Source: a virus. Taken from it: a stretch of DNA of 64,000 bases. The notes under the pieces were generated by a model that worked only from the letters and a program-made list of their open reading frames with translations, was not told where the DNA came from and made no database searches. Positions 13,695 to 43,331 of this stretch are shown piece after piece. The DNA lies in the IMG/VR virus record IMGVR_UViG_3300042868_005641, positions 13,875 to 77,874 of that record; one strand, written 5' to 3'. How positions within the stretch are numbered: the first letter of the stretch is position 1; every line of letters starts with the position of its first letter. The position numbers were made by a program, and so were the translations under genes.

Positions 13695-13940
13695 ATGCAG
13701 AAACGAACTCGTAGCTTATTAGAAGAATTAGATTCTATGTATATTGAGCGTGAGCGCGACCTAGTGATAGAGAGCCGAGCTGCAAATATTATTGCTGGTG
13801 CTATTAATCTACTGGAACAGATTGATGCCTCCTATACCCAAGAACAAGCAGAAAATTTAACACGCAAATTACTCAATGCTATCCGTACTCGTGACGCAGG
13901 AAAATTTGCCAGAACAGTGAGGCGCAGTGATGCAAATTAA
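13695..13940 (+). CDS. Hypothetical late protein
   Basis: TAAATA upstream; intact 81-aa ORF. Confidence 0.6.
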   Translation: MQKRTRSLLEELDSMYIERERDLVIESRAANIIAGAINLLEQIDASYTQEQAENLTRKLLNAIRTRDAGKFARTVRRSDAN

Positions 13941-36823: not shown

Positions 36824-37921
36824 ATGAATTCGCCTAATGTCGGACTCTATATAAATTACGAAACCAGTCATTTATTAGAAAATCAATTTTCTCCAAATTG
36901 TAAAATATATCGAGATTATCTTGACGATCAAGATCGTGATGTATTTTTAAAATCCACACATGATCAATACATTGCAGTTTTGACCATGTTTCCCTTTCAT
37001 GACGGATGGGCAGATCAAATTAACCCATTGATTGCTCGTTGTGATCATGTGTTTATAATCTGCACAGAAGTTTTACTTCCTATTGTTGATTTTATCCAAG
37101 CTCATGATCATCACAACATCACTTATTATCTTTGTGGACATTTGAATTTTGAATTAAAACACAGTGCTGTACATCAGTACATGTATTGGTTTGATAACAC
37201 TACAGATTTTTATCGTAACTGGCTTCCTGAACTGTTGCATAGACTACATCCGTTCGACACAAAAAGATCGAGTTTTGATATCTTATTAGGATCTCGACGA
37301 GAGCACAGAAATTTCATATTTGAGCAGGCAATAAAAAATCCCGCATCTTACGTTCTGACATATTTTAAAAATCTATTAAGTTGGAGACTGTTACAGCAAT
37401 CTGAATGGGAACAGCAAGGAGTCAAGATAAATCAAACTCCAAGTATCACAGTGGAGAAAGTTGAGTATTACGGACGTGAAATTAGTCTAAGTCAAATTAT
37501 TCCGTTTAAGATTTATAATCAAACTGCATACTCTGTGGTTGCAGAAAGTGCTATACAAAATCACTTTTCACTGTTTTCAGAAAAAGTAGTCAAACCAATA
37601 ATGGCACGTAGATTGTTTGTGATGTTTAGTGGAAAGGGATATCTAGCCAATTTAAGAAAATTAGGATTTCAAACATTTGGTAACATCATCGACGAAAGTT
37701 ATGATGACTTGGATAACAACACTGAGAGATGGCAACATGCATGGGATCAAGTTGAGTGGTTAAATCAACAATCACAAGAACTTGTACTAGAAAAGATACG
37801 TCCAATTGTGGAACATAATTTTTCAGTTATGATGAATACAGATTGGTATGGAATATTTAGACAACAATTAACGCAGGACTTTATTAATAATTTAATTACT
37901 ACAGGAAAACAAAATGCTTAG
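36824..37921 (+). CDS. Glycosyltransferase-like protein, paralogue 3
   Basis: 'YSVVAES..FSEKVVKPI..L.KLGFQTF..IDESYD'. Confidence 0.55.
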   Translation: MNSPNVGLYINYETSHLLENQFSPNCKIYRDYLDDQDRDVFLKSTHDQYIAVLTMFPFHDGWADQINPLIARCDHVFIICTEVLLPIVDFIQAHDHHNITYYLCGHLNFELKHSAVHQYMYWFDNTTDFYRNWLPELLHRLHPFDTKRSSFDILLGSRREHRNFIFEQAIKNPASYVLTYFKNLLSWRLLQQSEWEQQGVKINQTPSITVEKVEYYGREISLSQIIPFKIYNQTAYSVVAESAIQNHFSLFSEKVVKPIMARRLFVMFSGKGYLANLRKLGFQTFGNIIDESYDDLDNNTERWQHAWDQVEWLNQQSQELVLEKIRPIVEHNFSVMMNTDWYGIFRQQLTQDFINNLITTGKQNA

Positions 37922-38213
37922 AAATCCACGTGACCTAACCAACGAAGAAATTGAAGAATGCATTGACGGTAGCAGCGATGTCGGCATGATACGTGAAATT
38001 ATCTCCATGGAAGATGTGTACAATGAAGATAGCACACACTTGCATGAAGAAAACTTTGCCACACGTTTTGCTTATGCAATCGAAGGCTTTATTGATGCAG
38101 ATCCAGAAACCGAAGCCTGGTCCGAAGCATGGGATAACAACTACGAATGGGGCCTAAGCATTGCTGAAAATATCAATGATGTGTTGACCGTAGATGTTGA
38201 CAGCACCGATTGA
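37914..38213 (+). CDS. Very acidic hypothetical protein
   Basis: AGGA SD; D/E-rich, 99 aa. Confidence 0.6.
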   Translation: MLRNPRDLTNEEIEECIDGSSDVGMIREIISMEDVYNEDSTHLHEENFATRFAYAIEGFIDADPETEAWSEAWDNNYEWGLSIAENINDVLTVDVDSTD

Positions 38214-38225
38214 AACTGCTATAAT
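38197..38225 (+). promoter_or_regulatory. Consensus sigma70 promoter
   Basis: TTGACA-17-TATAAT with TG upstream of the -10. Confidence 0.9.
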
Positions 38226-38231
38226 TACTAT

Positions 38232-38400
38232 GCATGGGCAAGGAGGTAGAGTAGCTCAATGGTGCTTGCGGGATAGATCTCTAACCCGGGCCTGCAGGCA
38301 TCCGTGGCATGTGAGCGTAAGTCTTTAAGGTTGCGACTAAGACCTCGATTGAAAAATCAAAACCAGGCTGGTACCCTGGGAGTATGCCAAGAGGAATAAT
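38232..38400 (+). ncRNA. Candidate structured ncRNA or long cis-regulatory leader
   Basis: GC-richer non-coding gap with about five nested or adjacent stems (see findings). No family recognised. Confidence 0.5.
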
Positions 38401-38417
38401 CTGGAAAGGATATGTAA

Positions 38418-38753
38418 ATGTCTATTGAAGTTGGGATCTCTGCGTCGAGCATGTCCGAATCACTCAATTCGCTTAAAGTAACGCCCTTGCCCATGCACCG
38501 TATTTTTGTGGAGATTGGCAGTACCGAGATTTGGTACAAGATCATTGCCGAAGCCAATCGTGAATTTGGTATTCGCGGCTGGAGCGGACAATCGGGTACC
38601 AAACGTCGGCTAGATCGTCAGAATCACATGTGGCCGTCTGCACTCAAAACCACCATACGTGTGTGGTTTGACGTGCCTGATGAAAAGTTTGCCACTTGGA
38701 TTGCTATAAAGTATCCAGTAACTGTTCTAGCACCACCGGCAACCAAAATATGA
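38418..38753 (+). CDS. Hypothetical protein
   Basis: AAAGGA SD; 'WFDVPD.KFATW' motif. Confidence 0.6.
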   Translation: MSIEVGISASSMSESLNSLKVTPLPMHRIFVEIGSTEIWYKIIAEANREFGIRGWSGQSGTKRRLDRQNHMWPSALKTTIRVWFDVPDEKFATWIAIKYPVTVLAPPATKI

Positions 38754-39754
38754 AACTATATGAATCTTTTGTAAAATTTGACCACGTTAACAAAAGCTAT
38801 GATGGCAAAACTCTGGTGGTACAAGATCTATCTCTTGACGTTCGGCCAGGAGAATTTCTAACCTTGCTGGGCCCGTCAGGGTCGGGTAAAACCACTGCAT
38901 TGATGATGCTGGCTGGATTTGAAAATCCCACCGCCGGTGAGATATATCTCAATGGTAATCCTATTGTACACATTGCGCCCGAGCATCGGAATATTGGCAT
39001 GGTGTTTCAGAACTATGCCTTGTTTCCGCACATGACTGTGGCTGAGAATATAAGATTTCCATTAAAGGTACGTGGTATAGTAGGCAACACCGCTAATGAT
39101 AAAATTACTGCTATATTGAGCAAGGTAGGACTAACAGGGTTTGAGAATCGTCGGCCATCACAACTATCTGGTGGACAACAACAACGAGTGGCAGTGGCAC
39201 GAGCATTGGTGTTTGATCCGCAATTGGTATTGATGGATGAACCATTGTCATCCCTGGACAAACAATTACGAGAACAATTGCAATATGAGATCAAAAATCT
39301 ACATAGAGCAACAGGTATCACGTTTGTGTATGTGACACATGATCAAACTGAAGCAATGTACATGTCAGATCGCGTGGCAGTATTTCATCAAGGACGTATA
39401 CAGCAAATTGGCACACCATCTCAATTGTATGAATCCCCGGCCAATATGTTTGTGGCACAGTTCATTGGCGAAAATAACATTATAAAATCTTTCAATAATC
39501 TACACAATGTTTGTGTTCGCCCTGAACGAGTTCAACTCGACCCGGTTGATGCAGTTGATATACTAGTCAACGGCACTGTGCTCGATGTAACTTATCTAGG
39601 ACGGTATATCCGCATACAGTTAGATTCATGTGGTCTTGACAATTTTACTGTGACCCTGGCAAATACTGGGCAACTTTTAAATTTGCAAGTTGGAAGAATA
39701 GTCAAACTAGGATGGAATTTTGCTGATTGCCGCACATTCGCTCCAGCAGAATAA
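38750..39754 (+). CDS. potA: Polyamine (PotA/PotG-type) ABC transporter ATPase
   Basis: GPSGSGKT, MVFQNYALFPHMTV, LSGGQQQRVA, LMDEP and YVTHDQ.EA; TOBE-like C-terminus. Confidence 0.85.
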   Translation: MKLYESFVKFDHVNKSYDGKTLVVQDLSLDVRPGEFLTLLGPSGSGKTTALMMLAGFENPTAGEIYLNGNPIVHIAPEHRNIGMVFQNYALFPHMTVAENIRFPLKVRGIVGNTANDKITAILSKVGLTGFENRRPSQLSGGQQQRVAVARALVFDPQLVLMDEPLSSLDKQLREQLQYEIKNLHRATGITFVYVTHDQTEAMYMSDRVAVFHQGRIQQIGTPSQLYESPANMFVAQFIGENNIIKSFNNLHNVCVRPERVQLDPVDAVDILVNGTVLDVTYLGRYIRIQLDSCGLDNFTVTLANTGQLLNLQVGRIVKLGWNFADCRTFAPAE

Positions 39755-39758
39755 ATTT

Positions 39759-40946
39759 ATGAGTTTGACTCAACATACCCGTGCGTATGCACTAATTGCG
39801 CCATTGCTGCTTTTTGTTGTTGTGAGCTTTATCCTTCCGCTTGGAATGATACTGGTCAACAGCATTTATGATCCTGTGATACCCAATGGATTACCTCGTA
39901 CTGTATCCGCACTTGAAACATGGGATGGTGCCCCGACTCAAGTTCCTCCTGAGCATGTGTATGCTGCGTTGGCACAGGATCTCAAACAAGCAGTTGAACA
40001 ACAAAAAATTGGTTCAATTGCCAATCGATTAAACATTGAAGAACCTGGGTTACGCACCATCCTTACTAGGACTGCAACACAACTCGATTATCAAATTACA
40101 GGCCCATGGGCACCTGCATTTGAAGCTGTTAATCCTGCATGGGCTCGCCCAGAAATTTGGGGTACAATAAGAAATCTTTCATCATCTACCCATTTGTTGT
40201 TTTTCTTGTCTGCATTGGATTTACATCAATTGCCCGACGGGACTGTGGCAAGGAAACCTGAAGATCAACGTATCTATATCAAGATCTATCTACGCACCTT
40301 GGGAGTAGCAGCAACTGTAACTGCAATATGTATGTTGTTGGGATTTCCACTGGCGTATATGTTAGCGCACCTTAAAGAAAAAACAGCTAACATACTATTA
40401 ATTTTGGTGTTGCTACCATTGTGGACGTCGCTATTGGTACGTACTACAATTTGGATGGTAATGCTGCAAAAAGAAGGAATAGTAAATTGGCTGTTACAAC
40501 GTTTGGACATTATCTCTAGCCCAATGCAGTTGATATTTAATCAAAGTGGAGTTATAATTGCAATGACGTATATTTTATTGCCTTTTATGATTTTACCTAT
40601 GTATTCAGCGATGCGGCAGATTCCTGCACAGTATGTGAATGCAGCACGATCATTAGGAGCCAGTTCAGCAACTGCGTTTTTTCGTGTGTACTTGCCACAA
40701 TGCATGACTGGTGTTGGTGCCGGTATGCTATTGGTATTTGTTCTTTCTTTAGGATACTATATAACACCTGATCTGATAGGCGGGTCCACAGAACAAATGA
40801 TCAGTTATTTTATAGCAGACAACATAGGCCGGTCCCTAAATTGGGGGCTAGCATCAGCCCTGTCTGTTATTTTACTTGCTGCTGTGTTACCGTTGTATGT
40901 GGTATATGATCGTGTGATTAGTAACAATAGATTTAAAATTCAATAA
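39759..40946 (+). CDS. potB: Polyamine ABC transporter permease (PotB-type)
   Basis: LLGFPLAY, LPLWTSLLVR, LPFMILP.Y and EAA loop (AARSLGAS). Confidence 0.8.
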   Translation: MSLTQHTRAYALIAPLLLFVVVSFILPLGMILVNSIYDPVIPNGLPRTVSALETWDGAPTQVPPEHVYAALAQDLKQAVEQQKIGSIANRLNIEEPGLRTILTRTATQLDYQITGPWAPAFEAVNPAWARPEIWGTIRNLSSSTHLLFFLSALDLHQLPDGTVARKPEDQRIYIKIYLRTLGVAATVTAICMLLGFPLAYMLAHLKEKTANILLILVLLPLWTSLLVRTTIWMVMLQKEGIVNWLLQRLDIISSPMQLIFNQSGVIIAMTYILLPFMILPMYSAMRQIPAQYVNAARSLGASSATAFFRVYLPQCMTGVGAGMLLVFVLSLGYYITPDLIGGSTEQMISYFIADNIGRSLNWGLASALSVILLAAVLPLYVVYDRVISNNRFKIQ

Positions 40947-40954
40947 ACTATATC

Positions 40955-41770
40955 ATGCAAATTGTTGGAAAAATTTTACTTTATTTGATTGCTGCTGCGG
41001 TGTTGTTATTCTTGATTGCACCAATCCTACTAGTAATGCCATTGGCATTTACTCAATCGTCATATTTCCAGTTTCCAATTGAAGCATACAGTCTACGCTG
41101 GTTTGAAGAATTATTTAGTAGTCCAATTTGGTTACATGCCATATACAACAGCATTGTGATTGCATTGATGTCTACATTACTAGCAGTATCTTTGGGCACA
41201 TTGGCTGCAATGGGACTAAATCATAATGACTTGCCGGGCAAACGTTTTGTCATGGCAGTTTTAATCTCACCAATGATTGTGCCAGTTGTGGTGCTGGCAG
41301 TTGGATCTTACTTTTTTTATTCTAAATTGGGCATTGCTAACAATTTATTGAGTATTGTGTTGATTCATGCAGTGTTAGGCATGCCATTTGTGGTGATCAC
41401 CGTAACTGCTGCACTGGCTGGATTTGACATGAAACAAGTGTGGGCTGCACGTGGGTTAGGGGCATCTGCCTGGCAGGCTTTTTGTTATGTAATGTTTCCG
41501 GCAATTTGGCCAGGTGTGGTATCTGGTGCTCTATTTGCATTTGTTATGTCCTTTGACGAAGTAATTGCAGTATTGTTTTTGGGCGGGCCTGAGCAAACTA
41601 CATTACCAAGACAGATGTGGGAAGGACTTCGTGAGCAACTGTCGCCGACTATTCTTTCAGCTGCGTTCGTGATAATTTCTATAACCACAATTATATTGCT
41701 GCTAGAAACACTACGCCATCACAGAACTGTAAAGTACACAGTCACTGTGCCATTATTACCTGGTAAATAA
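40955..41770 (+). CDS. potC: Polyamine ABC transporter permease (PotC-type)
   Basis: SLRWF, SPMIVP.VV, PFVV, AARGLGA, F..SFDE and TLP. Confidence 0.82.
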   Translation: MQIVGKILLYLIAAAVLLFLIAPILLVMPLAFTQSSYFQFPIEAYSLRWFEELFSSPIWLHAIYNSIVIALMSTLLAVSLGTLAAMGLNHNDLPGKRFVMAVLISPMIVPVVVLAVGSYFFYSKLGIANNLLSIVLIHAVLGMPFVVITVTAALAGFDMKQVWAARGLGASAWQAFCYVMFPAIWPGVVSGALFAFVMSFDEVIAVLFLGGPEQTTLPRQMWEGLREQLSPTILSAAFVIISITTIILLLETLRHHRTVKYTVTVPLLPGK

Positions 41771-41774
41771 TCTT

Positions 41775-43331
41775 ATGTTTCTTAGTCTCATTACTTTAGC
41801 TGTGGCATTGAGCCTTAGCGTTATTGCTGCATATTACAGCATTGCTGGCCTGGCTGCTATATTTGCAGCGGCTGTGGTACCCATCATGATCATGGGATCT
41901 GTGCTGGAATTGGCCAAAGTTGTGGTCACATTGTGGCTGCATGAATACTGGTCACGCTGCCGCTGGTTGATGAAATTATATCTAGTACCGGCTGTGGGCA
42001 TGTTGATGTTGATAACGTCAATGGGTATCTTTGGATTCCTATCAAAAGCACACAGCGATCAAAGTCTAGTATCAGGTGACGTGATAGCAAAGATTGCTGT
42101 GTATGATGAAAAAATCAAGACTGAAAAGGAAAACATAGATGTTAGCCGTAAATCCCTTAAACAAATGGATGAAGCTGTGGACCAAGTTATGGGTCGTAGC
42201 TCAGACGAAAAAGGTGCAGACAAAGCTGTGGCTGTGCGCCGTGGCCAACAAAAGGAGCGTCAGCGCCTGCTTGCGGAAATTTCTGAAAGCCAAACACGCA
42301 TTTCAGCACTTAACGAACAACGTGCCCCAATTGCCGCCGAAGTTCGCAAGGTTGAAGCAGAAGTAGGCCCAATCAAGTACATTGCAGCATTAATCTATGG
42401 AGACAATCCGGAGATTAATGTGTTAGAACGTTCTGTACGTTGGGTGATTATACTGCTGGTATGTGTGTTTGATCCACTGGCCATCATGATGCTGCTGTCT
42501 GCAACCGAAAGTCTCAAGTGGGCTCGTAAACCGCCAATGAAGGAAATATCCGAAGATGGGCACAAGACACCATGGTCTGAACCTGTAGTAGAAGAATATG
42601 TTAAATGGCCTGGGGGGTGTGGGCCTACTGAAACAGTAGCAGAAAAAGAATTTGATATCAATGATCATCCGTACTTGTTTACACCGCCAGGGAATCGTAC
42701 TCCGCCAGGCGTAGAACCTGCCCCAATACAAGTATATCGGCCCAGCGATCCAGAACTTGATCCTTGCTATAAATGTGGTACACCATTGATGAATGCTCCG
42801 GGCATTGGTCCTTTTTGTCCAAATCGAGAATGTGATGTATCCGATGGACCATTCTTGCATGAACAGGAACCTATCAAAATCAAATATATTTCACCAACTG
42901 CTCATCTCGAAGATGAGCATGACGAAGATGAAAGTGTTGAGATCAAAAATGCCAAATCACAATGGAAAGCTGACAATCCTGGTGATACATTAAAACGCCA
43001 TAGACGTTTGCTGGAAGTGGGAGTGATAGATCAACTGCCGTGGATAACGTATCTGGACAAAGCGCCCGAATCAGGGTTTGGCAACGTGCTTCCTGAACAC
43101 GGAAACAAGGGCGACACATTTATGTCCACCATTGGCATTCCACATCGACTGTACAAACACAATGGATTTGAATGGATCAGAATTGACAATACTCAACAAG
43201 ATAACTATACTTACGACACAGCTTATATTGATCACTTGATCAGTCAAATTGATCAAGGATTGTATGATCCTGATCAACTGAGTGACAGCGAACGTGAACA
43301 GATTGAACAACGTATAACACAACCCAAATGA
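41775..43331 (+). CDS. Membrane protein with coiled coil and zinc-ribbon insertion
   Basis: Several N-terminal TM helices, a coiled coil, EVGPIKY, FDPLA and CYKC..CPNREC. Confidence 0.6.

Follow-up and report, generated by a model that had tools for sequence, protein, structure and literature searches.

A 64,000-nucleotide (nt) stretch of viral DNA, positions 13,875 to 77,874 of the IMG/VR virus record IMGVR_UViG_3300042868_005641 (hereafter the window), carries on its plus strand an uncatalogued conserved folded RNA, which the comparison of homologous sequences indicates to be real and to represent a large phage RNA class outside Rfam 15. The element begins at the predicted first nucleotide of an operon transcript and joins the 5' untranslated region (5' UTR) to the start of the first gene, which encodes a small basic protein of what we call the p105 family. 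Its architecture led us to propose that the RNA is a cis-acting translational gate of this first gene and, through that gene, possibly of the operon, a reading which we hold to be rather probable. A preliminary description of the locus had announced a non-coding RNA of about 170 nt. Both statements have to be corrected, since the fold spans 38232-38496 (about 265 nt) and takes in the Shine-Dalgarno (SD) sequence, the AUG and codons 1-27, so that about 80 nt of it are coding.

Homologues and evidence for a conserved fold

Homologues of the 111-amino-acid (aa) protein encoded by the first open reading frame (ORF) were found on 18 viral contigs, in which the upstream DNA could be aligned with the window leader. 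A pattern search with the invariant leader motifs gave 62 viral contigs of up to 364 kb, holding 46-47 distinct sequences from four to five clades. Two alignments were used: one of 46 distinct leader homologues aligned to a covariance model (A6), and one of leader, tail and coding sequence from 47 sequences (A7), which was scanned for helices all against all; as a slide control, pairing partners were shifted by 1-3 columns. The leader helices are paired in 96.4% of the cells of A6, compared with 30-45% when slid, and 16 of their pairs are changed on both sides. For the long-range and coding helices of A7 the corresponding values are 99.7% and 33-43%, with 12 pairs changed on both sides. The preliminary description had made its proposal depend on covariation among homologues, and such covariation is present in both parts of the element.

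The thermodynamic evidence is of a different kind for the leader and for the whole element. The folding stability of the 188-nt leader alone is ordinary (z = +0.60), and the reality of the leader fold therefore rests on the homologues. The whole stretch of 267 nt has a minimum free energy of -89.6 kcal/mol (z = -2.37), equalled by 2 of 200 shuffles, and its minimum free energy structure includes the 12-base-pair (bp) helix P0 as well as P4/P5, P6, P7 and the SD hairpin (Table 1).

Table 1. Features of the folded RNA, its promoter and its first gene, in window coordinates, with the pairing and exchanges seen among homologues
Feature	Position	Strand	Observation
Whole folded element, about 265 nt	38232..38496	+	5' UTR 38232-38417 and codons 1-27 of ORF 38418-38753; folding energy, covariation
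Sigma70-type promoter	38197..38225	+	-35 TTGACA 38197-38202, 17-nt spacer, TG 38217-18, -10 TATAAT 38220-38225
P0, long-range closing helix, 12 bp	38232-38243 (GCAUGGGCAAGG) : 38485-38496 (CCUUGCCCAUGC, codons 23-27)	+	99.3% paired in 47 sequences; 5 pairs changed on both sides
Pa, second long-range helix, GCGA:UCGC	38333-36 : 38469-72 (codons 18-19)	+	100% paired; C-G/A-U exchange 21/24
Initiation-region hairpin, SD GGAUA:UGUCU	38408-12 : 38419-23	+	AUG 38418-20; 100% paired; A-U/U-A exchange 35/12
Hc1, coding hairpin (codons 6-13)	38434-37 : 38453-56; inner CUC 38438-40 : GAG 38447-49	+	100% paired, 4/4 outer pairs changed on both sides; inner 3 invariant
P2, base of long arm	38249-51 : 38323-25	+	100% paired; A-U/G-C exchange 11/35
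P3, base of long arm	38254-58 : 38312-16	+	4/5 pairs changed on both sides
P4	38259-62 : 38302-05	+	Invariant; U-G pair in 46/46
P5	38263-72 : 38291-300	+	7/8 modelled pairs changed on both sides
P5 apical loop, 18 nt	38273..38290	+	6-nt palindromes AGAUCU 38275-80 and CCCGGG 38285-90
Pseudoknot GGCA:UGCC, 4 bp	38306-09 : 38385-88	+	100% paired; G-C to A-U in 4 sequences of one clade
Joining strand J2/6 (xAGGxUGxGAC...)	38326..38346	+	Invariant A, G, G, U, G, G, A, C in 46-47 sequences
Pb (tentative), CCUC:GAGG	38343-46 : 38391-94	+	Would close the P6/P7 junction; CUUC:GAAG in L058
P6 hairpin GAUU-GAAA-AAUC	38347..38358 (38347-50 / 38355-58, GAAA loop)	+	100% paired; 2 pairs changed on both sides
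P7 hairpin CCAGG-CUGGUAC-CCUGG	38363..38379 (38363-67 / 38375-79)	+	100% paired; 2 pairs changed on both sides
ORF, 111 aa, p105 family (about 105 aa)	38418..38753	+	Frame 0 open in 47/47; SD AAAGGA upstream

The search for known RNA families in the 64-kb window using the 4227 models of Rfam 15 gave no match at gathering scores. At E <= 10, the interval 38100-38550 yielded two chance snoRNA matches only, both upstream of the RNA and none within the element. ARAGORN detected neither a tRNA nor a tmRNA in the window, and a D-loop-like GCUCAAUGG turned out to be the 5' strand of P3/P4. The earlier view that this is an unclassified structured phage RNA, and not a tRNA, is upheld by these searches, no Rfam 15 family accounting for the element. 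Judged against Rfam 15, it belongs to no known family. A DNA search of cultured phages returned no match to the element, and the strict RNA pattern had 0 matches in one genome each of 185,579 bacterial and archaeal species. A published IMG/VR screen for structured RNAs lists thousands of unnamed candidates (PMC10690425).

Architecture of the folded domain

The strongest helix of the whole region in the all-against-all scan is P0, in which the first nucleotides of the transcript pair with the coding region. Some of the changes in P0 alter the protein, as when Pro-Leu-Pro becomes Pro-Gln-Pro alongside the change of GGGCAAGG to GGGUAGGG. Similarly, the A-U/U-A exchange in the SD hairpin, a weak hairpin with two G-U pairs, turns codon 2 from Ser into Thr. 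The entropy of third codon positions is 0.44 in codons 1-22, 0.22 in codons 23-27 and 0.96 in codons 28-33. This part of the element is still coding, frame 0 being open in 47/47 sequences with the other frames closed and no indels. P0 and Pa together enclose the SD and the AUG, which is the structural arrangement expected of an autogenous translational operator. A 32-codon ORF from 38230, which the preliminary description had named as the possible coding alternative, is conserved neither in frame nor in start: among 46 homologues an ATG is present in 5/46 and no start codon at all in 8/46, and an in-frame stop follows after 3-40 codons.

One homologue (L053, IMGVR_UViG_3300008267_003661) has a normal leader and an internal deletion about 50 nt into the ORF, codons ~18-35 being gone. 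The deletion takes away the 3' strands of Pa and P0. Either this sequence has lost the long-range lock by natural variation, or the deletion arose in assembly.

The leader contains a long arm (P2 to P5) and the two hairpins P6 and P7. The conserved internal loop GUAAxU divides P2 from P3 at the base of the arm, and an invariant AUCAAAAC stands before P7; in clade 3 the stem of P6 is longer by 3 bp and its loop is GCAA. Much of what the preliminary description had drawn recurs here. Its long stem 38259-72/38291-305 corresponds to P4 plus P5, with covariation in P5, and its GATT-GAAA-AATC hairpin with a GNRA loop and its CCAGG/CCTGG hairpin are P6 and P7, both of which covary. The G-U pairs that it took to favour the plus strand are indeed invariant or frequent, and since the U-G pair of P4 is present in all sequences, the RNA strand must be the plus strand. 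A further helix, GAG..GTCTT/AAGAC.CTC, had to be given up, as only 46-59% of its cells are paired, which is no better than shuffles. The pairing of TGGCATGT (38305-12) with GTATGCCA (38382-89) survives in part: its GGCA:UGCC core is kept in all sequences, but it does not close a multi-way junction. This core pairing crosses the well-supported P2/P3 and is therefore a pseudoknot. Support for it from sequence variation is modest, coming from one exchange event; GGC:GCY is kept in distant relatives, as read from their sequences.

Within the joining strand J2/6 lie 38333-36, the 5' side of Pa, and 38343-46, the 5' side of the tentative helix Pb. In an alignment-free duplex test of the tail-to-junction pairings, the duplex energy of Pb (CCUC:GAGG) was not beyond chance in the window's clade, and this also applies to a partial pairing at UCUGG. 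A helix Pc beside the SD (CACUG:CAGUG, CACCG:CGGUG or CCACC:GGUGG) can be clearly recognised in clade 3 and the distant relatives only.

Several other candidates were examined and rejected. A closing helix of the 5' GCAUG with UAUGC (38383-87), the first proposal of RNAalifold, never varies, competes with P0 and the pseudoknot, both of which covary, and has no counterpart in distant relatives; this pairing may be used transiently during transcription. Pairing of GAGG in J1/2 with CCUC at 38343-46 is disrupted in several lineages, where G has changed to A without compensation, and clade 3 lacks it; pairing of nt 7-10 with the 3' strand of P6 shows no correlation within clade 3. A role as a CsrA-type GGA sponge was discarded as well, the GGA of the joining strand being GGU or GGC in three clades.

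The apical loop of P5 has a conserved property of its own. A perfect 6-nt palindrome was found in it in 19/20 lineage representatives, compared with 3.8 expected from shuffles, a count which overstates the number of independent events because the lineages are related. In the controls, palindromes were found in 0/16 cases for J2/6 and in 2/16 for the tail. The type of palindrome varies by lineage (AGAUCU, AUCGAU, CUCGAG, CCCGGG, ACCGGU, CCUAGG); the first palindrome of the loop is absent in some lineages, and one distant relative, L098, has none. The halves of such a hexamer are adjacent and cannot pair inside one loop. Covariation from palindrome to palindrome has been described as the mark of symmetric intermolecular kissing loops in the OLE and GOLLD RNAs (bioRxiv 10.1101/2024.12.08.627333), and the P5 loop agrees with this description, its self-complementarity being kept while its sequence varies. 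At the level of sequence, the varying P5 palindromes hint at RNA dimers.

Promoter, operon and small basic protein

The viral record of which the window is part is 77.9 kb long and has a CheckV completeness of 22%. The promoter of the element had been described as a perfect sigma70 promoter, which is borne out by a consensus match of 12/12, with TG ahead of the -10 box, and by its being the sole exact TTGACA-N17-TATAAT in the window (0.04 expected). From the promoter spacing, the transcript is predicted to start at G38232. A TTGACA-like -35 box and a TATAAT-like -10 box were seen at the same distance from the GCAUG start in nearly all of the 46 printed homologues. No plus-strand terminator was found between the RNA and ORF 38418-38753, which identifies the RNA as a leader rather than a separate gene. 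Indeed, the RNA precedes the p105-family gene in every examined locus with readable downstream DNA, with one model match per locus.

Upstream, the -35 box (38197-38202) lies inside the last codons of an ORF for an acidic 99-aa protein (37914-38213). Homologues of this ORF are present in 12 other contigs and are not followed there by the RNA (0 matches with the covariance model), so that the joining of the 99-aa ORF to the RNA is peculiar to the window's phage. P7 (38363-38379) together with the complement of AUCAAAAC resembles an intrinsic terminator when the minus strand is read. A minus-strand terminator at this position (CCAGG...CCUGG with a T-run) was rejected, as no long convergent minus-strand ORF is conspicuous near it and the G-U pairs favour the plus strand; the resemblance is probably incidental.

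Downstream of the small gene, a homologue of ORF 41775-43331, which encodes a membrane protein, follows in 73 loci examined. In the window this ORF is succeeded by the genes for ClpX, Hsp20 and ClpS, and ClpX was also found downstream in 53 loci examined. On the evidence of gene order, the conserved operon consists of the RNA, the small basic protein, the membrane protein, ClpX, Hsp20 and ClpS. Between the small gene and the membrane-protein gene, the window contains at 38696-41770 a PotA-like ATP-binding cassette (ABC) ATPase with a TOBE_2 domain and two permeases. Queries with the ATPase and the first permease matched no other examined locus, and the query with the second permease matched none. 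As far as the loci examined allow this to be read, the ABC transporter cassette is a recent insertion peculiar to the window's phage. The preliminary description had considered a riboswitch-like leader for an operon continuing into a polyamine transporter. A leader without a terminator is what we find, but the link to the transporter does not hold, and a polyamine reading is not supported, because the transporter is an insertion found in the window's phage only. No binding-protein gene was seen beside the cassette.

The membrane protein encoded by ORF 41775-43331 has 518 aa, with four hydrophobic segments (residues 1-55, 65-90, 220-243), a long, charged and possibly coiled-coil middle part and a Cys-rich C-terminal domain (CxxC...CxxxxC). 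It belongs to no Pfam family and has at least 8000 metagenomic relatives with 65-90% identity. Weak relatives of its N-terminal half occur in Pelagibacter phage Mosig, Xanthomonas phage XacN1 and Salicola phage SCTP-2.

The 111-aa protein has an isoelectric point (pI) of 9.7. Its AlphaFold2 model has a predicted local distance difference test score of 75.6, with residues 1-21 below 50, and predicts a ferredoxin-like core from about residue 25, preceded by a disordered N-terminus of 21-25 residues which overlaps the RNA fold. The protein has no Pfam match and, among the PHROGs, a weak match only, to one of unknown function; fold searches gave only generic ferredoxin-like matches (best Z 6.8; Foldseek E >= 0.05), and a search of the protein atlas gave unnamed viral clusters only. 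In the protein search of cultured phages, the small protein had no match.

A profile search of 1.84 billion protein representatives recovered only 86 clusters of the small protein. At the loci of two distant members the leader is longer, at 240-250 nt, and shows the same landmarks (CCGUGGCG, GUAAAUCC, AGGxUGxGGCAC, AUCAAAAC and GGGAGUAAGC). The best duplex in each of L094, L095 and L099 is again one between the 5' end and the homologous codons, formed from different sequences, for example GCAG...UGGGA : UCCCA...CUGC. The best computed duplex of L098 lies elsewhere, and the homologous pairing GUAGUG:CACUAC was found by eye. In these four loci the 5' strand of P0 begins 7 nt past the -10 box. 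The Pa of the distant relatives, read from the sequences, is GAGG:CCUC or GUGG:CCAC, in the same place ahead of CUUAAA. The SD of two of them (L094:1470-1485 and L095:1470-1486) lies within an 8-nt palindrome followed by UAAC (GAGAUCUC-UAAC), a string almost identical to the one that the first palindrome and UAAC make up in the P5 loop of the window (38275-38286). To judge by this resemblance, the string may be a shared recognition or pairing site.

Moreover, two homologues of the small protein (L096:1480-1710 and L097:1480-1710) have neither the leader RNA nor the N-terminal ~25 codons. They begin at the ferredoxin-like core (MYKIWF...), and their ATG shares nucleotides with the stop codon of the gene before them (TAATG). 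Since these loci lose both, and since residues 1-21 of the window protein are predicted to be disordered, the N-terminal codons and the RNA travel together. Part of the protein N-terminus seems to exist mainly to carry RNA structure.

Possible function and comparison with known systems

The way in which a translational gate could operate follows the order of transcription. The consensus sigma70 promoter would give rise to the mRNA of a conserved operon in uncultured freshwater giant phages, and this RNA would fold from its first nucleotide into one domain of about 265 nt, comprising the P2-P5 arm, P6, P7, the pseudoknot, P0 and Pa. The helices are nested: P0 surrounds all the others, the long arm and Pa lie within P0, and Pa in turn surrounds the junction of P6 and P7, the hairpin with the SD and AUG and the hairpin of the coding region. 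P0 and Pa would fasten the 5' UTR to the first part of the coding sequence. The SD and AUG would come to lie within the closed domain, in a weak hairpin with other helices beside it. Transcription reaches the 3' strands of Pa and P0 50-80 nt beyond the start codon, so that ribosomes could load on the nascent RNA; they might otherwise load after something opens the fold. Ribosomes in transit would hold P0 open, and completion of the fold would occlude the first gene's start site. Once folded, the RNA should be translated poorly because the initiation region is hemmed in on both sides, and we infer from this architecture that the closed fold blocks initiation. The trigger would most likely be a protein that stabilises the closed fold, and the first candidate is the encoded small basic protein itself, which with its pI of 9.7 could act by autogenous feedback.

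Several observations weigh against the translational gate. The SD hairpin is weak, and in the clade of the window the pairings Pb and Pc do not exceed chance expectation. The small protein has, according to its model, a generic ferredoxin-like fold, for which RNA binding is only a candidate role. Translating ribosomes must melt P0 and Pa, and the fold could therefore serve stability or another purpose. Moreover, the many invariant unpaired nucleotides of the junctions (AGGxUGxGAC, AUCAAAAC, GGGAGUAUGC, GUAAxU) would suit a small-molecule pocket equally well. This last point leads to a metabolite or ion riboswitch, in which the core of joining strands, P2-P7 and pseudoknot would be the aptamer and the ligand would decide whether P0 and Pa close over the start site. 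A multi-helix architecture with a pseudoknot and a 5' leader position without a terminator agree with such a function, and a conserved structured aptamer in a 5' leader is what the covarying core with its invariant junctions looks like. However, no Rfam riboswitch matches the element, the controlled genes (a protein of unknown function, a membrane protein and ClpX/Hsp20/ClpS) give no metabolic clue to a ligand, the only transporter is a lineage-specific insertion, and the strict pattern is absent from the bacterial and archaeal genomes searched; we consider a riboswitch unlikely. Another explanation is an RNA that senses temperature or stress in the manner of rpoH or cspA and would tune a proteostasis operon through melting or refolding, with temperature, of the pairing between the initiation region and the coding sequence. 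In its favour, the operon encodes ClpX, Hsp20 and ClpS, and pairings with coding sequence surround the initiation region. The weak SD hairpin is embedded in a fold of -89.6 kcal/mol, which with its G+C-rich P0 of 12 bp is far more stable than known thermometers; no match to ROSE or fourU was found, and strictly conserved unpaired nucleotides and a pseudoknot are unneeded for simple melting; we regard a thermosensor as quite improbable.

Two further explanations were considered. A constitutive 5' stabiliser, whose paired first nucleotides shield the mRNA from decay that depends on the 5' end and which does not switch, would agree with P0 beginning at the predicted +1 both in the window and in distant relatives. 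A short 5' hairpin would suffice for this purpose, and a fold of 265 nt with a pseudoknot, invariant junctions and palindromic loops would be left unexplained; we give this explanation hardly any credence. The RNA might instead dimerise through the palindromic tips of P5 and be a structural or ribonucleoprotein (RNP) RNA, possibly together with the small basic and the membrane protein, with effects in cis being secondary. The frequency of the palindromes (19/20 lineages, with 3.8 expected), their switching between types in the same manner as the kissing loops of OLE and GOLLD (bioRxiv 10.1101/2024.12.08.627333) and a promoter of consensus strength speak for this explanation. On the other hand, the relatedness of the lineages reduces the weight of that count, some lineages lack the first palindrome and L098 has none, the inclusion of a translated region in the fold speaks for a role on the mRNA itself, and there is no evidence of processing; a structural RNA of this kind appears doubtful to us. 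Somewhat less doubtful, though still tentative and drawn by analogy, is a reading in which the element would be a self-dimerising, partly translated mRNA domain, whose dimer, perhaps with the small basic and membrane proteins, would set the translation of the proteostasis operon or build an RNP assembly, as a phage counterpart of OLE-type RNAs.

The element adds to the known structured RNAs a large class which is absent from Rfam, is widespread in uncultured giant freshwater phages and heads a phage's own ClpX/Hsp20/ClpS operon. A better knowledge of the gate and its trigger would explain how giant phages time their proteostasis genes. The gate, once worked out, would also provide a compact natural example of long-range control between 5' UTR and coding region, and possibly of mRNA dimerisation, in bacteria.

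The alpha-operon/S4 pseudoknot of Escherichia coli and the gene 32 leader pseudoknot of phage T4 are autogenous translational operators that fold around the initiation region, the thermosensor principle of E. coli rpoH is the enclosure of the initiation region by pairing with the coding region, and OLE RNA is co-transcribed with the gene of its membrane-protein partner. By analogy, the element would work most like the autogenous operators around the initiation region (S4 alpha-operon, T4 gene 32) or like the rpoH thermosensor. With the two operators it shares a structured, pseudoknotted leader that contains, or lies next to, the SD and the initial codons of the operon's first gene, and with T4 gene 32 also an A-rich, little-structured stretch between the fold and the start codon. 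It differs from both in having no similarity to them by sequence or model, in its much larger size (~265 nt), in being closed by 12 bp that join its 5' terminus to codons 23-27 and in its palindromic loop tips, and its binding protein is a candidate only. The resemblance to rpoH consists in an initiation region folded with internal coding sequence and in the genes concerned, a heat-shock or proteostasis regulon there and the ClpX, Hsp20 and ClpS operon here. In contrast, the 5' UTR of rpoH is almost unstructured, a pseudoknot and conserved junction nucleotides are absent from rpoH, and the fold in the window is far more stable.

Translational riboswitches with long-range or pseudoknotted platforms are similar in their multi-helix core, in the invariant junction nucleotides upstream of the SD and in the lack of a terminator, whereas the window RNA matches none of the 4227 Rfam models, appears to regulate non-metabolic genes and offers no candidate ligand. 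The OLE, GOLLD and ROOL RNAs, of which GOLLD and ROOL are likewise phage-associated, share with the element loop palindromes that switch type, the signature used for symmetric kissing loops (bioRxiv 10.1101/2024.12.08.627333). Unlike them, the window RNA is much smaller, has no Rfam match, is part of an mRNA and is partly translated, and its oligomerisation is suggested by sequence only. Its distinctive traits are the pairing of the first transcribed nucleotides with codons 23-27, an N-terminal peptide that seemingly exists for the RNA and the palindromic tips.

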